From a virus (taxonomy: Duplodnaviria; Caudoviricetes), in IMG/VR virus record IMGVR_UViG_3300008262_000114, positions 1 to 41,044 of that record: a DNA stretch of 41,044 nucleotides. One strand, given 5' to 3'. Both the position numbers and the translations under genes were made by a program. The number at the start of each line of letters is the position of its first letter. Position 1 is the first letter of the stretch. Below are positions 1 to 36,178 of the stretch, in pieces. The notes under the pieces are model-generated. The model was not told where the DNA came from and made no database searches. It saw nothing but the letters and a program-made list of their open reading frames with translations.

Positions 1-3000
1 ATCCCTTTTGATCTTTTTCAAAATAGACTTAGCAATAGCGCGAGGGTCTTGCGAGTAAATTCTAGCAATATACGCATTGTAAAAACCAGCCTTTTTTCCT
101 ATTCTAGCAAGAATCTCATACACGTCCTCATATCTTTGTTGCAAGTCGGCCTTTTCATCGCCCTTGGCTTTAGCTATTCTATCACGTAGGTCAATTAGCG
201 CCTTTCCATAAACAACCGACTTCAACTCTAGTGGTATCGCGCTATACTCTTTCATAGCCTCGTCTAAAACCGCGTCAATGCCATTTTCAGCTATCAAACT
301 ATCTACAAGCGCCTCCATTTCATCAAAGGTGAATATTTCGGCCATATTTCGCTTGTCATTAGCGATTGCGTCCTTATCGGCTTGCGGCAAGTTGGAGTTC
401 TCCACGAACGCGCGGATCACATTACGAAGTTTAGGAGTAACGTTCTTACTATCTATCTTGCGAGTAGCCGTCTTGTCGTAAAGCGCATCAAACAAATCCC
501 TCATTTGAGGACTAAGCTCGATATATTCGGGGCTATTCAACGCTCCCTTGTACAAGTCTTTCAAGAACTTAGCAAAGGCATCAAATACCTCCATCATTTT
601 CTTTGAGAAACCCGCTTTCTCCCCTTCCATGAAATACTTTTCAGCACTACGGGCAAACAACTCTTGCAAGAACGTAGGATCAGTTGGATCATACTCTTTG
701 CCTTTTGTCCATGATTCACCAGCCTTCTTGGAACGATCAAAAAACTTCTCCCCTTGCTCACTAGCACCAAACTCTTTAATGGTTTTAAGATGATCCTTTG
801 CCTTTTGGTTTCCATTGGCGGCCATTTGTTCAAGAAGCCCCATGAAGTTATGCGCGGGTTCATGGATCAAAGTCGAAATATCAGCAGCCTCGGTATAAGC
901 AGTAATGCCTTGTTCGATTGAAGTAGCGCCTTTTACTCCTTGAAGATAAATATTATTTGTATCTTCGGAAAACGCACCCGAATTATCGGTGGCAGACTTA
1001 ATTTGGTTGTTAAACTCGTCAAAAACTTGAATGTGAGAAGTTGTTTTCCCAAGCCCCATATTCTTAAACCTGCCCGAAACATCAGTGAGTATAATTCCGT
1101 CAAAACCCAAGTTCTTAAAAAAATCAGCAATAACCTGAGAGGAAGCTAATTCACCTTCTTCGTTCTCATAAATTTCATATCCTCTTATCAGTTTTTCTAT
1201 TTGGTTAAGATCGACAGAATCCTCATAAGCTAGATCACCCAATATTTCACTTGCAATGTTGCCATCATACCCATTATCTTGAAGCGCCTTTGTTAAAGCG
1301 TCAATGTGAAGCGGGGTGTAGCCCGTATTTTCTATTGCCCTTTGTTTTATATCAAAACTATAATCTTCTTTGGCCTCATCTTCTGAAATTCCAAATTCTT
1401 CGGCTATTTCAGCCGCAGCATCATCCATGTCGCTATCGCTAATATTGCTTGTTTCAAACCATTGCGAATCACCACCAAGAACAACTGGATTGTTTAGTTT
1501 AACAAAAAGTTCAAGTGTTTTTTCAGCGCCTCCTTTTAACTCTTTCTCAGCAATATCTTGTGCTAGTGCGGAAAAACTACCTAGTGCAGTTAATTGATTA
1601 CTTGTATATCCATAGTCTTTTGTTATTTGAGCCTTGTTCTTATAGAAGTCGCCATACTTATCTTCCAAGTCTTGCTCTATCCGTTCTTTTCTCGATTCAA
1701 CCCTACTCGTAATATCAGCGCCCTCTGCTAGATAATTTTCATTAGCATCTTGTATGTCGGAAGTAAAATAATTTACTTTCCCTAGATGACCCTCAATATT
1801 TCCCTTAACGGAACTATCAAACACATCAAATTCATTAGTAGTGCCGTGAAAAACTCTTAACACGACCTTCTCTCCCGTTTTTACATCTTGAATAGAACTT
1901 CCCGCGTACATTTCGTTGCCGCCTATCCATCTTTCTAGCCCGTCATTGGGGGTTAAATCCTTAATCAACTTTTCAACAGCCTCAACTAATTGGGGATTAT
2001 CGCCAGTTTCCTTGGCTTGGTGGTACGCGGACGAAATAAGTTCTTCATCGCTTTTGAATATACGTGTTTGAGTTGACTTAGAAACATCACCCTCATCGTA
2101 AACAACTATTTCCTTACCATCAACAACGTGACCCGTAATGCCCCTTTCCTTAAGAGCATCAGAGGCCTTGTCTTGGGCTTCAATAAAATCAGAAAAATCC
2201 TTTTTATCTACTACAAAACTTTGCTGCAAATCATCAAGGAACTGACCATACGTTTTGTACTTAGACGGGTCTATTCCGTTGATTATACCAATTTGCTTCA
2301 CTACTTCTTTCGGGATCGCTTCTTTAGCAAAAAGCATATTGTCACCCGTGATTTCAACCTCGCTAACAAATGGTGTGTAGGTTGGCGTTTGTGGATTAAA
2401 AGCGTAGCCGCCATTAGCAGACTTCTCTGCTGCATCAGCGGCAAAAATAGGGTCTATGGTAAAGAATACGCCACCACCTTGATTCCGAACACCCGTTCCT
2501 CTATACGTTCTATCAAATTTATTAAAGGCAACTTTATGCCCCGTAAACAACCTTTTTATTAGCGGTTTGCCATTGCGGCGTAGAACCTCTCGCTTCCCAT
2601 TATCTTTTCCTTTTCCATCCCATTCTTCCCTTGTTGACTCAGAATTAACGACTCTATCAGATTCGGTGATCTTCGGTGCGCCATCTTTTCGTTGACTGGG
2701 AGATTGTACTTCTTGAACACCGCTATCTGTTCGGGTGTTAGATTGATCTTTTGCATTACTAATTAATTTTTTAAGTTCATCTATTTTTGATCCAAGATTT
2801 GCCTCTTGCAAAACTCGTGTCGTTTCTTGTATTTGAGCTATCTTATTTTCCGCATTATTGTTATCTTGATTCAACTTATTAACCAATTGCTCAATGTCAT
2901 TACTCATAGCACCTTGAACCGCACTCCAAGCATCTTCGCTTGTCATTTCGGGATCAATAGTCATTGCGTACTTCGCCATTGCATCGCCTACAACAGCCAA

Positions 3001-6000
3001 TCTCTCAATATCTTCATCGCTTATTTGTGGCAAGAGTTCACGTAAAGCCTTTTTGTAACCCTCTCTACTCTTTACTACAATGGTCTTTTTCTCTTTCTTT
3101 TTACCCGCGGAGAAGAACTCCTTATTGTCTTCCAAATACTTCAAGAACTTCTTACGCGCCTCACCACCGTCATTTAAGGTCGTGGTGAAAGCCTTAGCCG
3201 CCTTGACCGCTTCAACTAACCCAACCTTATCGTAAGTGTCGGTAAACGTGTTCAAAACCTCTACAAACGGATCATCTGATTCTTGGAAAGGAGCGTCCTC
3301 GCCACCTAGTGAAAATGGTTCTTCATCGGGGATCACATCATAAGCCCTTGTGTCCTTTGCATCCTCGCGTTGAGCAAAAATCCTTTTAGCGTAAGAATCT
3401 ATGTTCTCTATCGGAACTAACTTATCGCCACTTGCAATACGGGTTATCTCTTTTTCTATAAAATCATTGCGGCCTTCTACGTGTGCAGCTATTTTTTTAG
3501 CATCACCCGCGGCCTTTAAGGCTGCAAGTTTCTTGTCATACGCAGCCTCCGCTTCATCAACTATCTTTTCAGCCTCAAATGTTGCTCTTTGATTACCCTC
3601 ATCTTCCAAAAGAGTTTTATCTTGCTCCTTTTGAAGGCGAATAACCTCATTCTTTACCGCAGCACGAGAACCATAACCCAAGTAAGTAGCAAAGGCATTA
3701 GCTACCTCATCGGGAGTATATGTAGTTCCGTAAGTTTCATTCATCCTATCGGTAATATTGCTAATATCACCATCCATTGTTTCGGAAATCCAACCAGCTT
3801 TCTTTGCCTTTTTGTACTCGGTAGAGTCCTTGTCAAGCATGGTCAACTCACCAAACAAACGAGAAGGTACTTTTGCACCTTCCGCTAAAGCAACCGCAAC
3901 GGCCATATCCGCTGACTTATTACTATCATTCTTTGCTCTATTGTAAACCGCTTGGTTTTCGCTAGCCGCCTTCACAGTGCCTCTTGGCGCAACTCTTTTG
4001 CCATCTTTGGTAATCTTAACCTTACCGCCCAAATACCCAAAATCAAGCCCTAGCTTCTTAGCCTCTTTCTGAATAGCACCCATAAGTTTATTAGCGCCTT
4101 CTGACGCCCTAGACTTAACGCCTAGTCGGTTGTATCTAGCAACATCGGATAACAAGTCATTCACCCGCCCTTGAATACTGCCCTTTAGGCTTTTGGCCTT
4201 TGCTTCAAGTGCTTGGATATCTCCTCCAGCTTCCAAAACATCGCCTCCCCCATCGACATTATTAGGCTCTCCACGATCTCCCTCTTGCCCCCGATCACCG
4301 AGAACATCTTGTGGTGATAAATCTCCACCCATACCGTCTTGCCCCTCATCCTTACCGCCCCGTCCGCTATCTCCACCGAAAAGGATTCGTCCAATTTCCT
4401 CATCGGCCTCGAATACCCCTCTTTCAACCGCTCTATTACCTCCATCGGTTTCAGTTCTAGGAGCGTTCGCACCTCCACTTCCTTCATCCCCGACAACATC
4501 ATTTCCTTGTACTGCTGTATCTTCGGTAAGTGCTTTATCTCCTCCATTTTTTTCTTTTGTTTGTTCTTTGATTTGTGATTTGTCAAAAACAACAATTTCC
4601 GCTTTTGGGGTAGTTTCTCCACCTAATGTTCTATTAACAAATACTGCATCATACCCATTTTCTTTAAGGATGTCAGAAAACCTTTTATCTCCAATTTCTT
4701 TAGTTATTTTTTTATACCCAAAATCTACATCTCCATCTGTTGCTTTCCTAATAATATCTCTTTCGTAGTCCTGTATATATTTTAGACTTTTAAGTGCTTT
4801 TTTTGTTCCTTCATCAAATACTTCATCTTTAATATTTATTTCAAATGGGTTTTTTACATTGATATTAAATTTTTTAACTACCCTGTTTTTAAACTTTAGG
4901 GAATAGTACTTTCCAATACCCTCACTTGCCGAAAAGTAAAATCCTTTCCCAAAATCCCCATGACCTGTTGCTGAATTTTGCCTTGATTCATCAAAGTCTT
5001 TAAAATCCTCCCCTGTGCCATGATAAACGGTTAAAGGTTCACCTTTATCATCTACTGCTTTATTGCCACCTTTTGCAGTAAAATCCACATCTCCCCCTAC
5101 ACCACTACCTACTTTTGTTTGTTCTTTAGATAGTAGGGATTCTACTGCTTTTACTAATTCGGGATTACTACCGTCTTGCTTGGCTTTGTGGTAGGCTTCG
5201 GAGATTAATGTAGAATATTTATCGTTTGTAATAATATTGTTTATTGCCGTTTCGTGTTCTTTGGCTAATCTTATATTTATAGGGTCATTTGGGTCGTCTA
5301 CTCCATACTCTTGTTCTTGCCATCTTTTTAATGGAGTTGTTGCAATTTGTAAATCATTACGTTCTTGTTTCTCTTTATTTGTTAATTTACTTTCTTTTGG
5401 ATATTTTACTGATAAATCTTGCAATTCTTTGTCGGTAAAATCTTCACTATAAGATGGTGCATTTTTATCTTGAAAATCAATTTTGGATAATAATTCTTTT
5501 CTATCTTCTTTTGATAGTTTATCTGATTTACTTTTAGCCCTTAATTGAGATATATCAACCTCCATTTGATTGATACCACTTCCACGACTACCAAAAATAA
5601 CTGCTTTATTTTCTCCATTGTACCCTCTAAAACTAACTTCTACTTCTTTGCCGTCTTTGGTAGTTAAAATAACTTTATCATCGGGATAAAATCTTTCTAC
5701 TTTATTTTTATTAGCTATTTCCAACGCTTTAGCAGTACTCTCTACATCTTTTAACTCAATGGGTGTTTGCTCGCTAATTTTTTTCTCTACCACAACTTCT
5801 TCTTGTGTAGATTCATCCGCCTCTAAAATATCTTTTTTTGCATTATAAATGTATGTTTCCGAAACTCTTTCTCCTTTGGAGTTAGTGTAAGAAAACTCAT
5901 ATAAATCGGAAGCCGCACCCTTGTTGTTGTCTGAAATTAATTTAGTCCCCGAATAATTATAATCTTTTTCACCATCTACCAATTCAAAAGGAACTAATAC

Positions 6001-8631
6001 AACTTCCTTACTTCCATCCTTTCTTGTTTTGGTTTCGGTTATCTCATATCCCTCCCCGTTTTTATCAGTTATAGTATCTCCAACTATTGCGTTTTGCAAT
6101 AAATCATCAGCAATAGCATTAGCATTGCCTTCTTTTTTAGCTAATTCGCCAGCACTTCTAAAACTTTCTTGTCTTTTTGCTTGCGCCTCTACCACAACTT
6201 CTTCTTGTGGTGTTTCAACAACCTTAGTGACTTGTTCGGGTTCAGCCGCGACCTCTTGCGCTTGTTCAGCAGACGGCAATAAAGGCGTAATCAGTTTATC
6301 GTACTTATCATAAACCTCGTCAAAGGCTTTTATATCTTCTTCCTTAGTGAGTTTAGCCCTATCTACCTTGCCATCTACTCTGTATTGATCTGCGTTCTCT
6401 ATCTTAGAATCAAGTTCGGTTTGTTCTTCCGCCCTCAATCTTTCAACTTCTTGTTGTGAATCCTTTACCTCCGCATCGGAGAACTCTTGCTTACCACCCG
6501 CCAAGTCAACTTTGGTTTTTCTACCAACAATAGACTTAAACTCATCATCAAGTTTAGCAACATCCTCAGATACATCCGTACCTAAAACTTTAGCTGCACT
6601 TTCCAAATCCATCTTTTGACGGGCAACATCAAAAGCTAATACCTTATCTTCTCTACTTAACCCATTCCAAGAGGGTAATGTTTCAGCCGCCACACGTATT
6701 TCGTGTAGCTCTTTTTGACGTGCCAAATTATCCTTGCTCATTTGCGGCAAATTGGCCTCATTAACCTCCGCAACGTCATACATAGCCTCGGCAATCATTG
6801 AAGGCATTGGTTTTCCACCGCGAAAAGCAGTCATAGCTCCACTCACCATTAAGCCGCCTAAAACAGCATCGGTATAGTCTTTTGAATTAAATATCTCATT
6901 TGGATTGAATCCAAAAGCAGCCTTATTTATATCAGACACATATTGTTCTAGTGGTTCTTCTACAAAACCCTCTTTCGCCATATTGCCAGCGTACTCATTC
7001 ATTGTGTTTCTAGCCACACTCATAAGTTCCTTGCCTCTTACTCCTTGCTTAATGGCGTCACGAAGTTTAATCATGTTCATAGGAGGAGTTCCTTCGGGAA
7101 CAATTTGTTCAACCGCTGCGCTCAAAATAGAACTAAATGTGCCAAATAATGCAGCTTCCTGCTGATCCATCCCCTCACGTAAAGCATCCTCATAATTATT
7201 AGCCATCTGCATAAGCATCGTAGTTCCAAAAGAACCTGCCTTTGCAGCATTTGTCGTGTTTCTTAAAATTTGAGTTGTTTGGCCACCCCCAGCCATTAAC
7301 GCCATAGACCCTGTTGCCGACCCAAATAATCTAGACAATTGCACATATAAGGGTGTTTCTTCATTAACATCAAAGGGACTTCCCATTTCGCCTTTTATAG
7401 CCGATTTTCCGCCCGCAGCCTTGCTATATAATTCATCCGCCCAATCACTATCGGTATCTCCAAGCAAATCACCCAAAACTTTAGGTACTTGCGCCATAGA
7501 AACAACACCATCTAATACCGTTTCACCAAAAGATTCTAAGACGTTATAACCCGCCACTGCCGATTTTTGAAGCATCGTGGCGGGCGTAAGTGGTGCGTTC
7601 GTTATTTTCTGAATAGCGGCCTTTTTAATTTCACGGCCTCTTGCTTCATCCGATTCTTCAACGGATAATTGACTCAAAGTAGAGGACTTAAATGCGATTT
7701 GAGGGTTGGCATAATTTTCCGCTAAATTTGAATAGGTGTTAATTTTTTCAGCGTCCAATCCACGCTTAGTCATTTCAGATTTAACAATACCATTCAAAGC
7801 AGAATATTGAGCCTCCAACGAATTTCTACGTGCGGGATCAGTTTCGGTATTAAGTTGCTCTGAAATATTATTCATTTCGAGTATCTTATCTCCGTTTTGC
7901 TTGTAAAAGTCTTTGACACCAAAACGCTGGTCCATCACGAACATTTCTTTCTCAATCGCATTGTTCTTAAACGACTGAGCCTTCATAATCATATCGCGGT
8001 ACTTCTCTTGTTGACCACGGCTTAAATCACCACTTAAACGCTGCTTGGCTAACTCATCAAAATCTTGTTTTATTTGATTTGCCGCGTCTTGGTTGCCAGT
8101 ATTCCATAGATAATCGACTTGATCTTGAACAAGCGATTCATTGTATAACCTACGATCATTTTCTGCTTTTAGCTTAGACGGAATATCCTTGCTAGCCTCA
8201 CCATTTTCAATCTCTTTAACATTGAACTGGTCTGATCTTTTAGGGGAATTAGCGTGGTAGACTTCAAGTTCTTTCGCATACTTATTTTGATAAGCAGCGT
8301 TCAGTGCTTTTATGTCAATTTCGGGCTTTTTAGGCCGCATTGATTCGTACCAGTCACCACCAACTTGCTTCTCTTTTACGGGTTGCTTCTCAGCGGGTTT
8401 AGCCGCCTTTGCTTTAGCCGTTTCAACGCCCTTTAACAAGGGATTTGAAGAAACCCCATAATCCATCGAACCAACGCCCGTATAAGGCTTTGATTTGACG
8501 GGTTCTTTTTTTTTTTCACCCGCTGGTTTTTGCGAACCAAAATATTCATCCAACGCAGCCCCAATTTGCTCGTCGGTTGCGTTATCATCAAACGTAAATG
8601 TTTTGCCGTTTGCTTTTACTTTCTTTGCCAT
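1..8631 (-). CDS. Giant polyvalent (probably virion-injected) protein, at least 2877 aa, 3' end outside the window; 3 ART-like domains plus HExxH metallopeptidase
   Basis: ATG at 8631 (MAKKVKANGKTFTFDD); frame stays open to position 1. Motifs: VYHGT...GKGFYF...KNPF...NGYDAV...EIVVFDKSQIK (about 5040-4565); LFTGH...GGGVFF...EIVVYD (about 2555-2095); VFHGT...GKVNYF...LNNP...GFDGI...IQVFD...QIKSATDNSGAF (about 1860-965); LIHEPAH (850-870) followed by QELFAR. Lies at the end of the virion operon. Confidence 0.9.
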   Translation of the reverse strand, partial: MAKKVKANGKTFTFDDNATDEQIGAALDEYFGSQKPAGEKKKEPVKSKPYTGVGSMDYGVSSNPLLKGVETAKAKAAKPAEKQPVKEKQVGGDWYESMRPKKPEIDIKALNAAYQNKYAKELEVYHANSPKRSDQFNVKEIENGEASKDIPSKLKAENDRRLYNESLVQDQVDYLWNTGNQDAANQIKQDFDELAKQRLSGDLSRGQQEKYRDMIMKAQSFKNNAIEKEMFVMDQRFGVKDFYKQNGDKILEMNNISEQLNTETDPARRNSLEAQYSALNGIVKSEMTKRGLDAEKINTYSNLAENYANPQIAFKSSTLSQLSVEESDEARGREIKKAAIQKITNAPLTPATMLQKSAVAGYNVLESFGETVLDGVVSMAQVPKVLGDLLGDTDSDWADELYSKAAGGKSAIKGEMGSPFDVNEETPLYVQLSRLFGSATGSMALMAGGGQTTQILRNTTNAAKAGSFGTTMLMQMANNYEDALREGMDQQEAALFGTFSSILSAAVEQIVPEGTPPMNMIKLRDAIKQGVRGKELMSVARNTMNEYAGNMAKEGFVEEPLEQYVSDINKAAFGFNPNEIFNSKDYTDAVLGGLMVSGAMTAFRGGKPMPSMIAEAMYDVAEVNEANLPQMSKDNLARQKELHEIRVAAETLPSWNGLSREDKVLAFDVARQKMDLESAAKVLGTDVSEDVAKLDDEFKSIVGRKTKVDLAGGKQEFSDAEVKDSQQEVERLRAEEQTELDSKIENADQYRVDGKVDRAKLTKEEDIKAFDEVYDKYDKLITPLLPSAEQAQEVAAEPEQVTKVVETPQEEVVVEAQAKRQESFRSAGELAKKEGNANAIADDLLQNAIVGDTITDKNGEGYEITETKTRKDGSKEVVLVPFELVDGEKDYNYSGTKLISDNNKGAASDLYEFSYTNSKGERVSETYIYNAKKDILEADESTQEEVVVEKKISEQTPIELKDVESTAKALEIANKNKVERFYPDDKVILTTKDGKEVEVSFRGYNGENKAVIFGSRGSGINQMEVDISQLRAKSKSDKLSKEDRKELLSKIDFQDKNAPSYSEDFTDKELQDLSVKYPKESKLTNKEKQERNDLQIATTPLKRWQEQEYGVDDPNDPINIRLAKEHETAINNIITNDKYSTLISEAYHKAKQDGSNPELVKAVESLLSKEQTKVGSGVGGDVDFTAKGGNKAVDDKGEPLTVYHGTGEDFKDFDESRQNSATGHGDFGKGFYFSASEGIGKYYSLKFKNRVVKKFNINVKNPFEINIKDEVFDEGTKKALKSLKYIQDYERDIIRKATDGDVDFGYKKITKEIGDKRFSDILKENGYDAVFVNRTLGGETTPKAEIVVFDKSQIKEQTKEKNGGDKALTEDTAVQGNDVVGDEGSGGANAPRTETDGGNRAVERGVFEADEEIGRILFGGDSGRGGKDEGQDGMGGDLSPQDVLGDRGQEGDRGEPNNVDGGGDVLEAGGDIQALEAKAKSLKGSIQGRVNDLLSDVARYNRLGVKSRASEGANKLMGAIQKEAKKLGLDFGYLGGKVKITKDGKRVAPRGTVKAASENQAVYNRAKNDSNKSADMAVAVALAEGAKVPSRLFGELTMLDKDSTEYKKAKKAGWISETMDGDISNITDRMNETYGTTYTPDEVANAFATYLGYGSRAAVKNEVIRLQKEQDKTLLEDEGNQRATFEAEKIVDEAEAAYDKKLAALKAAGDAKKIAAHVEGRNDFIEKEITRIASGDKLVPIENIDSYAKRIFAQREDAKDTRAYDVIPDEEPFSLGGEDAPFQESDDPFVEVLNTFTDTYDKVGLVEAVKAAKAFTTTLNDGGEARKKFLKYLEDNKEFFSAGKKKEKKTIVVKSREGYKKALRELLPQISDEDIERLAVVGDAMAKYAMTIDPEMTSEDAWSAVQGAMSNDIEQLVNKLNQDNNNAENKIAQIQETTRVLQEANLGSKIDELKKLISNAKDQSNTRTDSGVQEVQSPSQRKDGAPKITESDRVVNSESTREEWDGKGKDNGKREVLRRNGKPLIKRLFTGHKVAFNKFDRTYRGTGVRNQGGGVFFTIDPIFAADAAEKSANGGYAFNPQTPTYTPFVSEVEITGDNMLFAKEAIPKEVVKQIGIINGIDPSKYKTYGQFLDDLQQSFVVDKKDFSDFIEAQDKASDALKERGITGHVVDGKEIVVYDEGDVSKSTQTRIFKSDEELISSAYHQAKETGDNPQLVEAVEKLIKDLTPNDGLERWIGGNEMYAGSSIQDVKTGEKVVLRVFHGTTNEFDVFDSSVKGNIEGHLGKVNYFTSDIQDANENYLAEGADITSRVESRKERIEQDLEDKYGDFYKNKAQITKDYGYTSNQLTALGSFSALAQDIAEKELKGGAEKTLELFVKLNNPVVLGGDSQWFETSNISDSDMDDAAAEIAEEFGISEDEAKEDYSFDIKQRAIENTGYTPLHIDALTKALQDNGYDGNIASEILGDLAYEDSVDLNQIEKLIRGYEIYENEEGELASSQVIADFFKNLGFDGIILTDVSGRFKNMGLGKTTSHIQVFDEFNNQIKSATDNSGAFSEDTNNIYLQGVKGATSIEQGITAYTEAADISTLIHEPAHNFMGLLEQMAANGNQKAKDHLKTIKEFGASEQGEKFFDRSKKAGESWTKGKEYDPTDPTFLQELFARSAEKYFMEGEKAGFSKKMMEVFDAFAKFLKDLYKGALNSPEYIELSPQMRDLFDALYDKTATRKIDSKNVTPKLRNVIRAFVENSNLPQADKDAIANDKRNMAEIFTFDEMEALVDSLIAENGIDAVLDEAMKEYSAIPLELKSVVYGKALIDLRDRIAKAKGDEKADLQQRYEDVYEILARIGKKAGFYNAYIARIYSQDPRAIAKSILKKIKRD
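2559..2756 (-). CDS. Candidate nested +1-frame gene (65 aa) inside the giant gene, just before ART-like domain 2
   Basis: ATG preceded by AAAAAATTAATTAGTA; the main frame over this stretch is a polar low-complexity linker; ends with tandem TAA TAA where the ART domain starts. Confidence 0.45.
   Translation of the reverse strand: MQKINLTPEQIAVFKKYNLPVNEKMAHRRSPNLIESLILSQQGKNGMEKEKIMGSERFYAAMANR
4185..4547 (-). CDS. Candidate nested +1-frame gene (120 aa, MEEIKHLPK...) inside the giant gene, just after ART-like domain 1
   Basis: ATG at 4547 preceded by AAACAAAAGAAAAAA; globular-looking sequence, while the main frame here is Gly/Asp/Glu/Arg-rich and low complexity. Confidence 0.6.
   Translation of the reverse strand: MEEIKHLPKIQQYKEMMLSGMKEVEVRTLLELKPMEVIERLKEGYSRPMRKLDESFSVEIADGAVRMRGKTVWVEIYHHKMFSVIGGKREIVESLIMSMGEAMFWKLEEISKHLKQRPKA
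4554..5127. repeat. 16-bp exact direct repeat CTTTTGTTTGTTCTTT (4554-4569 and 5112-5127) flanking ART-like domain 1
   Basis: Read directly; both copies encode KEQTK in the main frame. Confidence 0.85.
5785..6209. repeat. 23-bp exact direct repeat CTCTACCACAACTTCTTCTTGTG (5785-5807 and 6187-6209)
   Basis: Read directly; both copies encode QEEVVVE; spacing 402 bp keeps the frame. Confidence 0.9.
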
Positions 8632-35134: not shown

Positions 35135-36178
35135 ATGACACACATTGGACTATTCGAAGGCATTGGAGGCTTCTCGCTTGCCGCACGTTGGGCAGGTTGG
35201 GAAACAATAGCTTGGTGCGAATGGAATGAGTTTGGCCAAAAAGTATTGCGCCATCACTTTCCCGAAGCAACTGGTCACGGAGATATAACAAAAACAGACT
35301 TTACTATTTATGCAAACAAAATTGATATTCTCACCGGAGGTTTTCCTTGTCAGCCCTACTCAACAGCAGGAAAACGGCTCGGAAAAGATGATGAACGCCA
35401 CTTGTGGCCCGAAATGCTTAGAGCAATTCGAGAGATTCAACCGCGTTGGGTCGTGGGCGAAAATGTACGCGGCCTTGTTAATTGGAACGGGGGAATGGTA
35501 TTCGACGAGGTGCAAGCTGACTTGGAGGCTTGTGGGTACGAAGTCCTCCCGTTTATACTTCCAGCTTGTGCCAAAGACGCTCCCCACCGAAGGGATCGAG
35601 TTTGGTTTGTTGCCCACGCCAAAGGCAACAGAAATAGAGGAGGATTACACGGAATGGAGAGCGCGAATGGTAGCGAGTGGAAACCCAAAGAACGTGGGCA
35701 AAACAACAACGAACATTGGAACGATGGCACGGTCGGGATTATTGCCGACACCGTCAACAACGGATTGGAACACCCCATTCAGCCAAGAACAAAAGACGAA
35801 GTTTTTAGAGAGGAGGAAGCAAGAAGGCAAAACAGCAGTACCGAGCAGTTTGAATCAATTGAGACAAATGGCTTACGAGGGATTGATGCCGACACCAACA
35901 TTACAAGAGTATACAAACAGCACCTTGCCTCCAAGTCAAATCAAAAGACAAAATATAGCGGGGCATCTTTTGAGGCAAGGGATTTCAGCTCATTCCCAAC
36001 TCAACCCCCAGTTTGTGGAGGAAATGATGGGATTCCCCGAAAATTGGACTCTATTACCTTTTCTAAATGGAGAAACGAATCAATCAAAGCCTACGGAAAC
36101 GCAATAGTGCCGCAAGTTGCCTATGAGATTTTTAAGGCAATCAACGCTTATGAAGTAAACCAAAGATCGCTAAAATAG
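35135..36178 (+). CDS. DNA cytosine-C5 methyltransferase, alpha-type chain (motifs I-VIII and X), 347 aa
   Basis: FEGIGG, GFPCQ, ENV, RDRVW, YGNAIVPQVA; no motif IX in this frame. Confidence 0.93.
   Translation: MTHIGLFEGIGGFSLAARWAGWETIAWCEWNEFGQKVLRHHFPEATGHGDITKTDFTIYANKIDILTGGFPCQPYSTAGKRLGKDDERHLWPEMLRAIREIQPRWVVGENVRGLVNWNGGMVFDEVQADLEACGYEVLPFILPACAKDAPHRRDRVWFVAHAKGNRNRGGLHGMESANGSEWKPKERGQNNNEHWNDGTVGIIADTVNNGLEHPIQPRTKDEVFREEEARRQNSSTEQFESIETNGLRGIDADTNITRVYKQHLASKSNQKTKYSGASFEARDFSSFPTQPPVCGGNDGIPRKLDSITFSKWRNESIKAYGNAIVPQVAYEIFKAINAYEVNQRSLK
35310..36107 (+). CDS. Alternative-frame methyltransferase beta-type chain (TRD-like repeats and motif IX), 265 aa
   Basis: Nested +1 frame; LLPTP, LLPTP, LMPTP repeats; LNPQFVEEMMGFPENWT is motif IX-like. 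Confidence 0.8.
   Translation: MQTKLIFSPEVFLVSPTQQQENGSEKMMNATCGPKCLEQFERFNRVGSWAKMYAALLIGTGEWYSTRCKLTWRLVGTKSSRLYFQLVPKTLPTEGIEFGLLPTPKATEIEEDYTEWRARMVASGNPKNVGKTTTNIGTMARSGLLPTPSTTDWNTPFSQEQKTKFLERRKQEGKTAVPSSLNQLRQMAYEGLMPTPTLQEYTNSTLPPSQIKRQNIAGHLLRQGISAHSQLNPQFVEEMMGFPENWTLLPFLNGETNQSKPTETQ

Follow-up and report, generated by a model that had tools for sequence, protein, structure and literature searches.

Does a 120-codon frame that lies out of frame inside a giant phage gene encode a protein of its own, and is that protein the partner of the ART domain encoded directly ahead of it? The question is raised by a linear virus DNA of 41 kb (IMG/VR record IMGVR_UViG_3300008262_000114; completeness 63%), analysed over its whole stretch of 41,044 nucleotides, which is called the window. 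The coordinates of the features considered are listed in Table 1. The nested frame and its protein are referred to as P0001.

The window encodes a terminase, a portal protein, a primase-helicase, and a capsid-like protein. The stretch is present in lake and freshwater DNA runs (20 runs listed); no RNA run containing it was found among the runs listed, which has no bearing on expression. Of the 78 terminase matches from cultured phages, 77 are from phages that infect Flavobacterium, Cellulophaga, or Maribacter (identity approximately 23%); therefore, the sequence points to a likely Bacteroidota host. A crAss-like label was dropped, the closest terminases being those of Flavobacterium and Cellulophaga phages at approximately 23% identity. 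The giant gene has the same orientation as the portal/capsid-like block and lies downstream of it, and its product is likely a virion ejection protein. With respect to size, domain content, and matches to PF18760 (ART-PolyVal) above the cut-off at two sites (4552-5052 and 970-1860), the gene appears to fit the polyvalent proteins with ART-PolyVal domains. As in the polyvalent proteins described in PMC5512222, a giant multidomain phage protein is encoded beside virion genes, with several ARTs and cassette-like variation. The structural model of ART1, built from 41 aligned sequences (pLDDT 87), had a cyanophage pre-ejectosome chain as its best PDB match (E 5e-6), followed by PARP-type domains. 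Elsewhere in the window, a 347-codon ORF at 35135-36178 (+) wholly encloses a G-rich ATG ORF of 265 codons on the same strand (35310-36107).

Table 1. Positions of the nested frame, of the surrounding features of the giant gene, and of nested frames in related giant genes. Positions are those of the window unless a locus is named.
Feature	Position	Strand	Remarks
Giant polyvalent gene	1..8631	-	at least 2,877 codons, open at contig end; PF18760 E 1e-21
Nested +1-frame ORF, 120 aa (P0001)	4185..4547	-	ATG at 4547, stop ends 4185
Main-frame Gly/Asp/Glu-rich linker, codons 1362-1482	4186..4548	-	same bases as nested ORF
A-rich leader of nested ATG	4548..4569	-	A at -3, -6, -13; C at -12
ART1, ART-PolyVal domain	4552..5052	-	PF18760; His and Tyr motif residues present; PARP-like fold matches
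In-frame cassette carrying ART1, 558 nt	4554..5111	-	joint 4553-5112; length divisible by 3
Upstream copy of 16-nt direct repeat	5112..5127	-	partner copy 4554-4569
Short conserved module	5140..5206	-	common to 37 related giant genes; many loose contig ends
Second ART-like segment	2059..2559	-	by eye; no Pfam match; no nested ORF behind
Third ART-PolyVal domain, long insert	970..1860	-	Pfam; no nested ORF behind
Second +1-frame ATG ORF, 65 aa	2559..2756	-	linker ahead of second ART-like segment; unproven
Nested HNH endonuclease, 156 aa	L009:8869-9336	+	complete, +1 frame of 3,491-codon open frame
Basic 45-57 aa family, nested +1 in linkers	L033:7702-7872, L015:8176, L014:8113, L016:3022		
Nested 88-99 aa ORFs	L039/L040:10447-10743; L004:3818-4081		in linker right before methylase-helicase-like region
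Nested +1 pair	L031:8134-8325; L019:8173		46% identical over 41 aa

The 120-aa ORF with an ATG of its own, to which an earlier note on this DNA had drawn attention with the strand unstated, does exist, on the minus strand. It is offset by +1 relative to the main ORF, both frames are open across 363 bases, and its start and stop lie wholly within the uninterrupted host frame, as in an embedded gene. A near-identical frame, P0002, is already among the gene calls of a JGI/IMG contig of 964 nt. The nested ORF is the longest +1 ORF of the giant gene; the +1 stop-free stretch that holds it measures 145 codons, and the next longest stretches measure 90, 70, and 67. When codons were resampled with the main-frame amino acids kept, the probability that the 120-codon span is open was 0.005, and a +1 ATG ORF of at least 120 aa arose somewhere in the gene in 2.25% of 2,000 recodings (P ~0.02). 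The openness of the nested frame modestly exceeds chance.

The strongest competitor of a nested gene is a by-product of the linker: Gly/Asp/Glu-rich sequence contains few residues that can make +1 stops, and its Asp-Gly and Asn-Gly codon pairs give rise to ATGs. A +1 stop is possible at only 10 junctions in the span, which is among the two most permissive stretches of the gene. Gly makes up 24% of the main-frame residues in the span vs. 8% in the whole gene, and the first codon position is G in 62% of the span codons vs. 41%. The GC content is 0.51 in the span, 0.31 in ART1, and 0.45 downstream. A two-changepoint fit placed the start of this block at codons 1360-1381 and its end at codons 1470-1506. 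The composition had been claimed to change over exactly the span of the ORF; this holds to within about 20 codons, and the jump from AT-rich to G-rich sequence is sharp on the ART side only. Composition cannot tell which frame drives the block, since a Gly/Asp linker yields a protein-like +1 frame and the reverse applies as well. The protein-like patterning that had been put forward as evidence for the nested frame has to be given up as such: linker recodings are equally protein-like in composition (z = 0.6), and with the HNH control, too, the test fails. An HTH-like look of residues 10-45 of P0001 was noted by eye only, with no Pfam support. On the opposite strand, an ORF of 191 aa (4193-4768, +) is Ser/Pro-rich and mirrors the linker. 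The by-product reading is further favoured by the orphan status of P0001 in every search and by +1 ORF numbers across 37 giant ORFs with no family-level excess; the low probability of openness nonetheless counts against it, as do the natural variants.

Natural variants were compared over 3500-5400 in 4 of the 20 runs holding the stretch (X2, X3, X4, and X6). In X2, which comes from a separate study, one contig is identical to the window across the end of ART1 and the start of the nested ORF; therefore, the arrangement is no assembly artefact. Forty of the 56 differences were listed, and the 27 in 3500-4547 were scored; the SNP scoring excluded 2 in the shared module and 11 that stem from a divergent ART-like piece. 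The listed differences include all 7 of the X3 contig; for the X4 contig, 3 fall outside the list, and for X6, 1. X3, X4, and X6 share most changes, and the SNP evidence amounts to one or two alleles.

Six of the scored SNPs fall within the span. Among the differences listed, the nested frame has 4 silent changes and 2 replacements, the latter near its ends (H6Q and R117K); the same six comprise 1 silent and 5 replacement changes in the main frame, in whose flank 17 of 21 SNPs are silent (main-silent share, span vs. flank, Fisher P = 0.008). The resulting pN/pS, among the differences listed and from one or two alleles, is 0.11-0.17 for the nested frame and 1.7-2.2 for the main frame. For the same listed differences, the probability of at least 4 of 6 nested-silent changes under neutrality is 0.013-0.038, main-silent changes in the span number 1 against approximately 5.4 expected (P ~0.03), and 4 of the 5 main-frame changes are nested-silent (P 0.014-0.053). 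In the X3 contig, 3 of the 5 differences inside the ORF are nested-silent. The nested frame looks like the frame under purifying selection; the earlier note had held as much, and both the SNP pattern and the frame-specific pN/pS, from one or two alleles and the differences listed, agree with it. Neither the depletion of main-silent changes nor the share of main-frame changes that are nested-silent is predicted by a relaxed linker alone. We regard the 120-codon ORF as probably a real gene; a mere by-product of the linker is conceivable and rather unlikely. Just downstream of the nested ORF, at 3938-4129, X3 and X4 show two alleles, and one of these has 17, mostly silent, differences over the 192 nt; this is mosaicism adjoining the nested ORF.

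On the sequences searched, P0001 appears to be an orphan protein. The only homologue found was P0002 (98%), and nothing was found in viral, metagenome, and genome contigs, INPHARED, Atlas, or PDB sequences. Queries with the main-frame linker and the downstream module found no homologue. The search in both frames that had been suggested as a check yielded no divergent homologue, P0002 being its single match. P0001 matched no Pfam, PHROG, NCBIfam, or PADLOC family, belonged to no Atlas cluster, and had no homologue in the six frames of 236 loci. Its single-sequence model reached a pLDDT of 36, which did not suffice for a fold search. Fifteen loci retrieved with a 17-nt pattern were unrelated. 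Membership of P0001 in TnpV (PF14198) was rejected, there being no profile match in the window; comparison with the weakly TnpV-like nested ORF of L039 gave a P of 0.003 alone, approximately 0.1 over 38 comparisons, and an hhalign probability of 1.3%. With regard to an HNH nuclease or ShiLan-type homing element, there was no family match for P0001 and no empty-site allele in the compared runs.

Nested frames were also sought in a related set of 37 giant genes, fetched with the short module just upstream of ART1. These genes contain 37 nested ATG ORFs of at least 55 aa. Across 37 giant ORFs, +1 ORFs of at least 55 aa number 38 vs. 31.6 under the recoding null (P = 0.10), and those of at least 120 aa number 2 vs. 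0.5 (P = 0.10). These counts do not clearly exceed the null; therefore, length alone proves little, and most nested ORFs in the relatives look like shadows, though a few are genuine. A strong family match was obtained for 1 of 37 nested ORFs, the HNH endonuclease of L009 (phrog_3377, E 1e-44), which by analogy can be taken as a ShiLan-like element inside a polyvalent gene. A Bacteroidota -7 promoter-like motif lies just ahead of its ATG. In the basic family of 45-57 aa, the L033, L015, and L014 members are 71-73% identical in the nested frame vs. 39-44% in the main frame, and their differences are commonest at nested third positions; the L016 member needs a gap and is uninformative in ungapped comparison. 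A homologue of this family stands free and unannotated between other genes in Aeromonas phage 1233 (L242:5980-6132). Nested third positions have G at approximately 0.6 and T at 0.04, with the same base profile in this family and in P0001. Such sequence comparisons support the view that, in the relatives, existing small genes were captured and their other frame used as a spacer. For P0001, capture is an analogy only because no allele without the nested ORF (an empty site) was seen. The description of the ORF as overprinted stands to the extent that a nested out-of-frame gene is likely; the order of events may be the reverse, as the nested genes of the relatives look older than the linker. In L039, the nested ORF has a sub-threshold TnpV match (E 0.022); L039 and L040 are 99.95% identical, and the pair is uninformative.

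The leader of the nested ATG contains 16 A in 20 nt, the highest count among 155 out-of-frame ATGs in the giant gene, which bears out the earlier remark on its A-richness. It is also the sole leader of the 155 without predicted structure, A-richness and lack of structure being correlated measures. The downstream one of the two 16-nt repeat copies (4554-4569) lies within it, as does a 7-A run ending in the ATG. A-rich, unstructured leaders promote initiation in Flavobacterium (PMC6847099), and the A residues at -3, -6, and -13 agree with the F. johnsoniae determinants given there; position -12 does not. A matrix derived from 25 of the phage's own leaders places the nested leader only 12th of 155, in the lowest range of the real genes. 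The main-frame Lys/Glu/Gln residues alone suffice for an A-rich leader. Taken from the sequence, an initiation site for the nested ORF is plausible. No Bacteroidota -7 promoter motif was found within 200 nt upstream of the nested ORF, and sigma-70 promoter scans gave matches at chance level only. The second, 65-aa ORF has the leader ranked 2 of 155, but its probability of being open is 0.16.

The repeat within this leader has a second role. ART1 is an exchangeable in-frame cassette bounded by a repeat that belongs to the nested leader. The 16-nt exact repeat, one of two exact repeats of at least 14 nt in the gene, flanks ART1 with copies 558 nt apart. One X3 contig, of 70 nt, connects 4553 with 5112, ART1 being removed in frame; the joint has 34 letters on its short side, 16 of them ambiguous, was aligned at 80% likeness, and calls for some caution. 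This contig carries 2 differences, and the allele changes at 4527 and 4530 are common to all three X3 contigs there; therefore, the joined contig belongs to this population. In another X3 contig and the main X4 contig, 61 differing letters follow past 4566, by eye in register and with no ART end. For X3, X4, and X6, a low or absent cover of ART1 was taken as evidence only where a contig joins across. The start of the nested ORF is intact in all X3 and X4 contigs that skip or replace ART1, and the boundary of the cassette falls inside the leader, after ART1 and ahead of the nested ATG. The X3 and X4 contigs that carry the nested-silent SNPs have no ART1 beside them; the SNP-supplying allele is therefore one without adjoining ART1.

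A short helical motif occurs twice in the giant protein (5140-5206 and approximately 2000-2080, both on the minus strand) and also in 37 other giant genes, and many different contigs join here; the module at 5140-5206 is likely a general cassette-exchange point. L004 follows the window at 94% identity as far as the upstream boundary, departs from it directly after the module, and then carries wholly different cassettes. A 23-nt exact repeat (5785-5807 and 6187-6209, 402 nt apart, in frame) probably bounds another exchangeable cassette.

If the ORF is a gene, its product might be an immunity protein or inhibitor that silences ART1, or any ART of the giant protein, during late synthesis and packaging. 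The layout had been read as that of a toxin followed by its immunity gene, and part of this reading stands: a small gene directly follows a toxin-like domain, the ART motif ending at 4567 and the ATG lying 19 nt on, in line with the distance of about 20 nt first given. ART1 retains its His and Tyr motif residues and an ART fold in the model, ART-PolyVal domains are grouped with toxin ARTs in PMC5512222, and further ART-like segments of the phage could need an inhibitor once ART1 is gone. The other part, that the pair moves as one cassette, fails at the boundary between them: alleles that skip or replace ART1 retain the nested ORF and its start. Recurrence tells against an inhibitor as well. 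A motif scan of ARTs from many hosts, confined to those with the scanned motif, gave 176 loci, 143 of them distinct; the ART end could be placed in 83, of which 70 were followed by at least 150 main-frame codons. With +1 ATGs counted from -15 to +40 codons, ORFs of at least 40, 60, and 80 aa lay behind 13, 6, and 2 of the 70 ends, vs. backgrounds of 14.8%, 6.1%, and 2.3%, and recurrence of the arrangement with homologous toxin domains was not above background at these 70 ART ends. In the 37-locus set, an ORF lies behind 2 of 5 ART ends (the window, and a 48-aa ORF in L013; background 7.9%), too few to weigh; within the giant protein, only ART1 of the three ART or ART-like segments has one. P0001 matched no family in the four collections searched, and hence none of the ADP-ribose-removing antitoxin folds (macrodomain, NADAR, and glycohydrolase). 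That the nested protein is the antidote of ART1 is not supported, and it probably is not; an inhibitor of any ART of the giant protein seems quite unlikely.

On balance, we lean towards an engulfed passenger gene that is internally initiated on the late mRNA, forms part of the constant downstream portion, and has a leader that serves as the exchange joint. On this account, 363 bases would be read in two frames, both of which are open, and natural changes, in the small sample at hand, fall on the linker and spare the nested protein. With no Shine-Dalgarno sequence, a Bacteroidota-type ribosome would start at the A-rich, unstructured leader. By analogy with the relatives, a once free-standing small gene may have been engulfed, its other frame providing a ready-made hydrophilic spacer that would keep the polyprotein continuous. 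With the boundary repeat of the ART1 cassette lying within the nested leader, incoming cassettes would leave the start site intact. In the weakest step, the product may be a soluble accessory protein, small and of alpha/beta type, that is made late with the ejection protein and acts on the constant downstream module or the infected cell, not on ART1. A frameshift product, in which slippage at the 7-A run or upstream yields a truncated polyprotein with the 120-residue frame at its end, would be expected to show an identical SNP pattern and is compatible with an A run that survives cassette exchange and with a +1 frame open for 145 codons from 4622, but it is very unlikely, as the ATG sits right at the composition shift with an initiation-type leader, the validated nested genes of the relatives begin at an ATG of their own, no such run occurs in three of the four L033-family leaders, and no insertion or deletion occurs among the differences listed for the DNA contigs.

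Small genes that lie entirely, and out of frame, within a larger gene are known from the Rz/Rz1 spanins of lambda and from comS inside srfAB, and the nested ORF resembles them in this respect. Rz and Rz1 are functional partners, whereas the host segment of the nested ORF is a low-complexity linker, and a partnership is putative at most. In polymorphic toxin-immunity cassettes, a toxin domain is followed by a small ORF and exchange takes place at short repeats. The present locus likewise has a toxin-like domain followed by a small ORF, and exchange at a short repeat; unlike in those cassettes, the exchange point separates ART1 from the nested ORF, and the two do not travel jointly. Such cassettes are mentioned as an analogy in PMC5512222, the main text of which contains neither 'overlap' nor 'linker', uses 'nested' and 'immunity' for other matters, and does not describe nested genes. 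In the open-licence literature, no paper on nested genes in the linkers of polyvalent or ejection proteins was found. The closest published case is the ShiLan domain, an HNH endonuclease encoded out of frame within a phage DNA methylase (PMC11855218). As described there, ShiLan is, as P0001 would be, a complete gene with its own start and stop in another frame, the host frame remaining open and being read as a tolerated loop, and its translation route is unproven, as is that of P0001. ShiLan is presented as a selfish homing nuclease of patchy presence (PMC11855218), whereas P0001 is without nuclease similarity and lies between polyprotein domains; the closer parallel to ShiLan is the nested HNH of L009.

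Taken by itself, the locus is of moderate significance, since P0001 is an orphan protein and the idea of immunity is not supported. In a wider view that we consider speculative and unlikely, giant ejection polyproteins would carry a hidden layer of engulfed small genes that serve as inter-domain spacers, with the leader as the recombination joint; here, the nested gene would encode a constant, late-made regulator of upstream effector cassettes, including ARTs. The locus adds a population view: the repeat at which an effector cassette is lost or swapped in frame doubles as a nested leader. If the nested gene is real, standard annotation would miss genes inside the largest ORFs of these phages, segments taken for disordered linkers would be dual-coding, and polyvalent proteins could grow by swallowing small neighbours without losing them.
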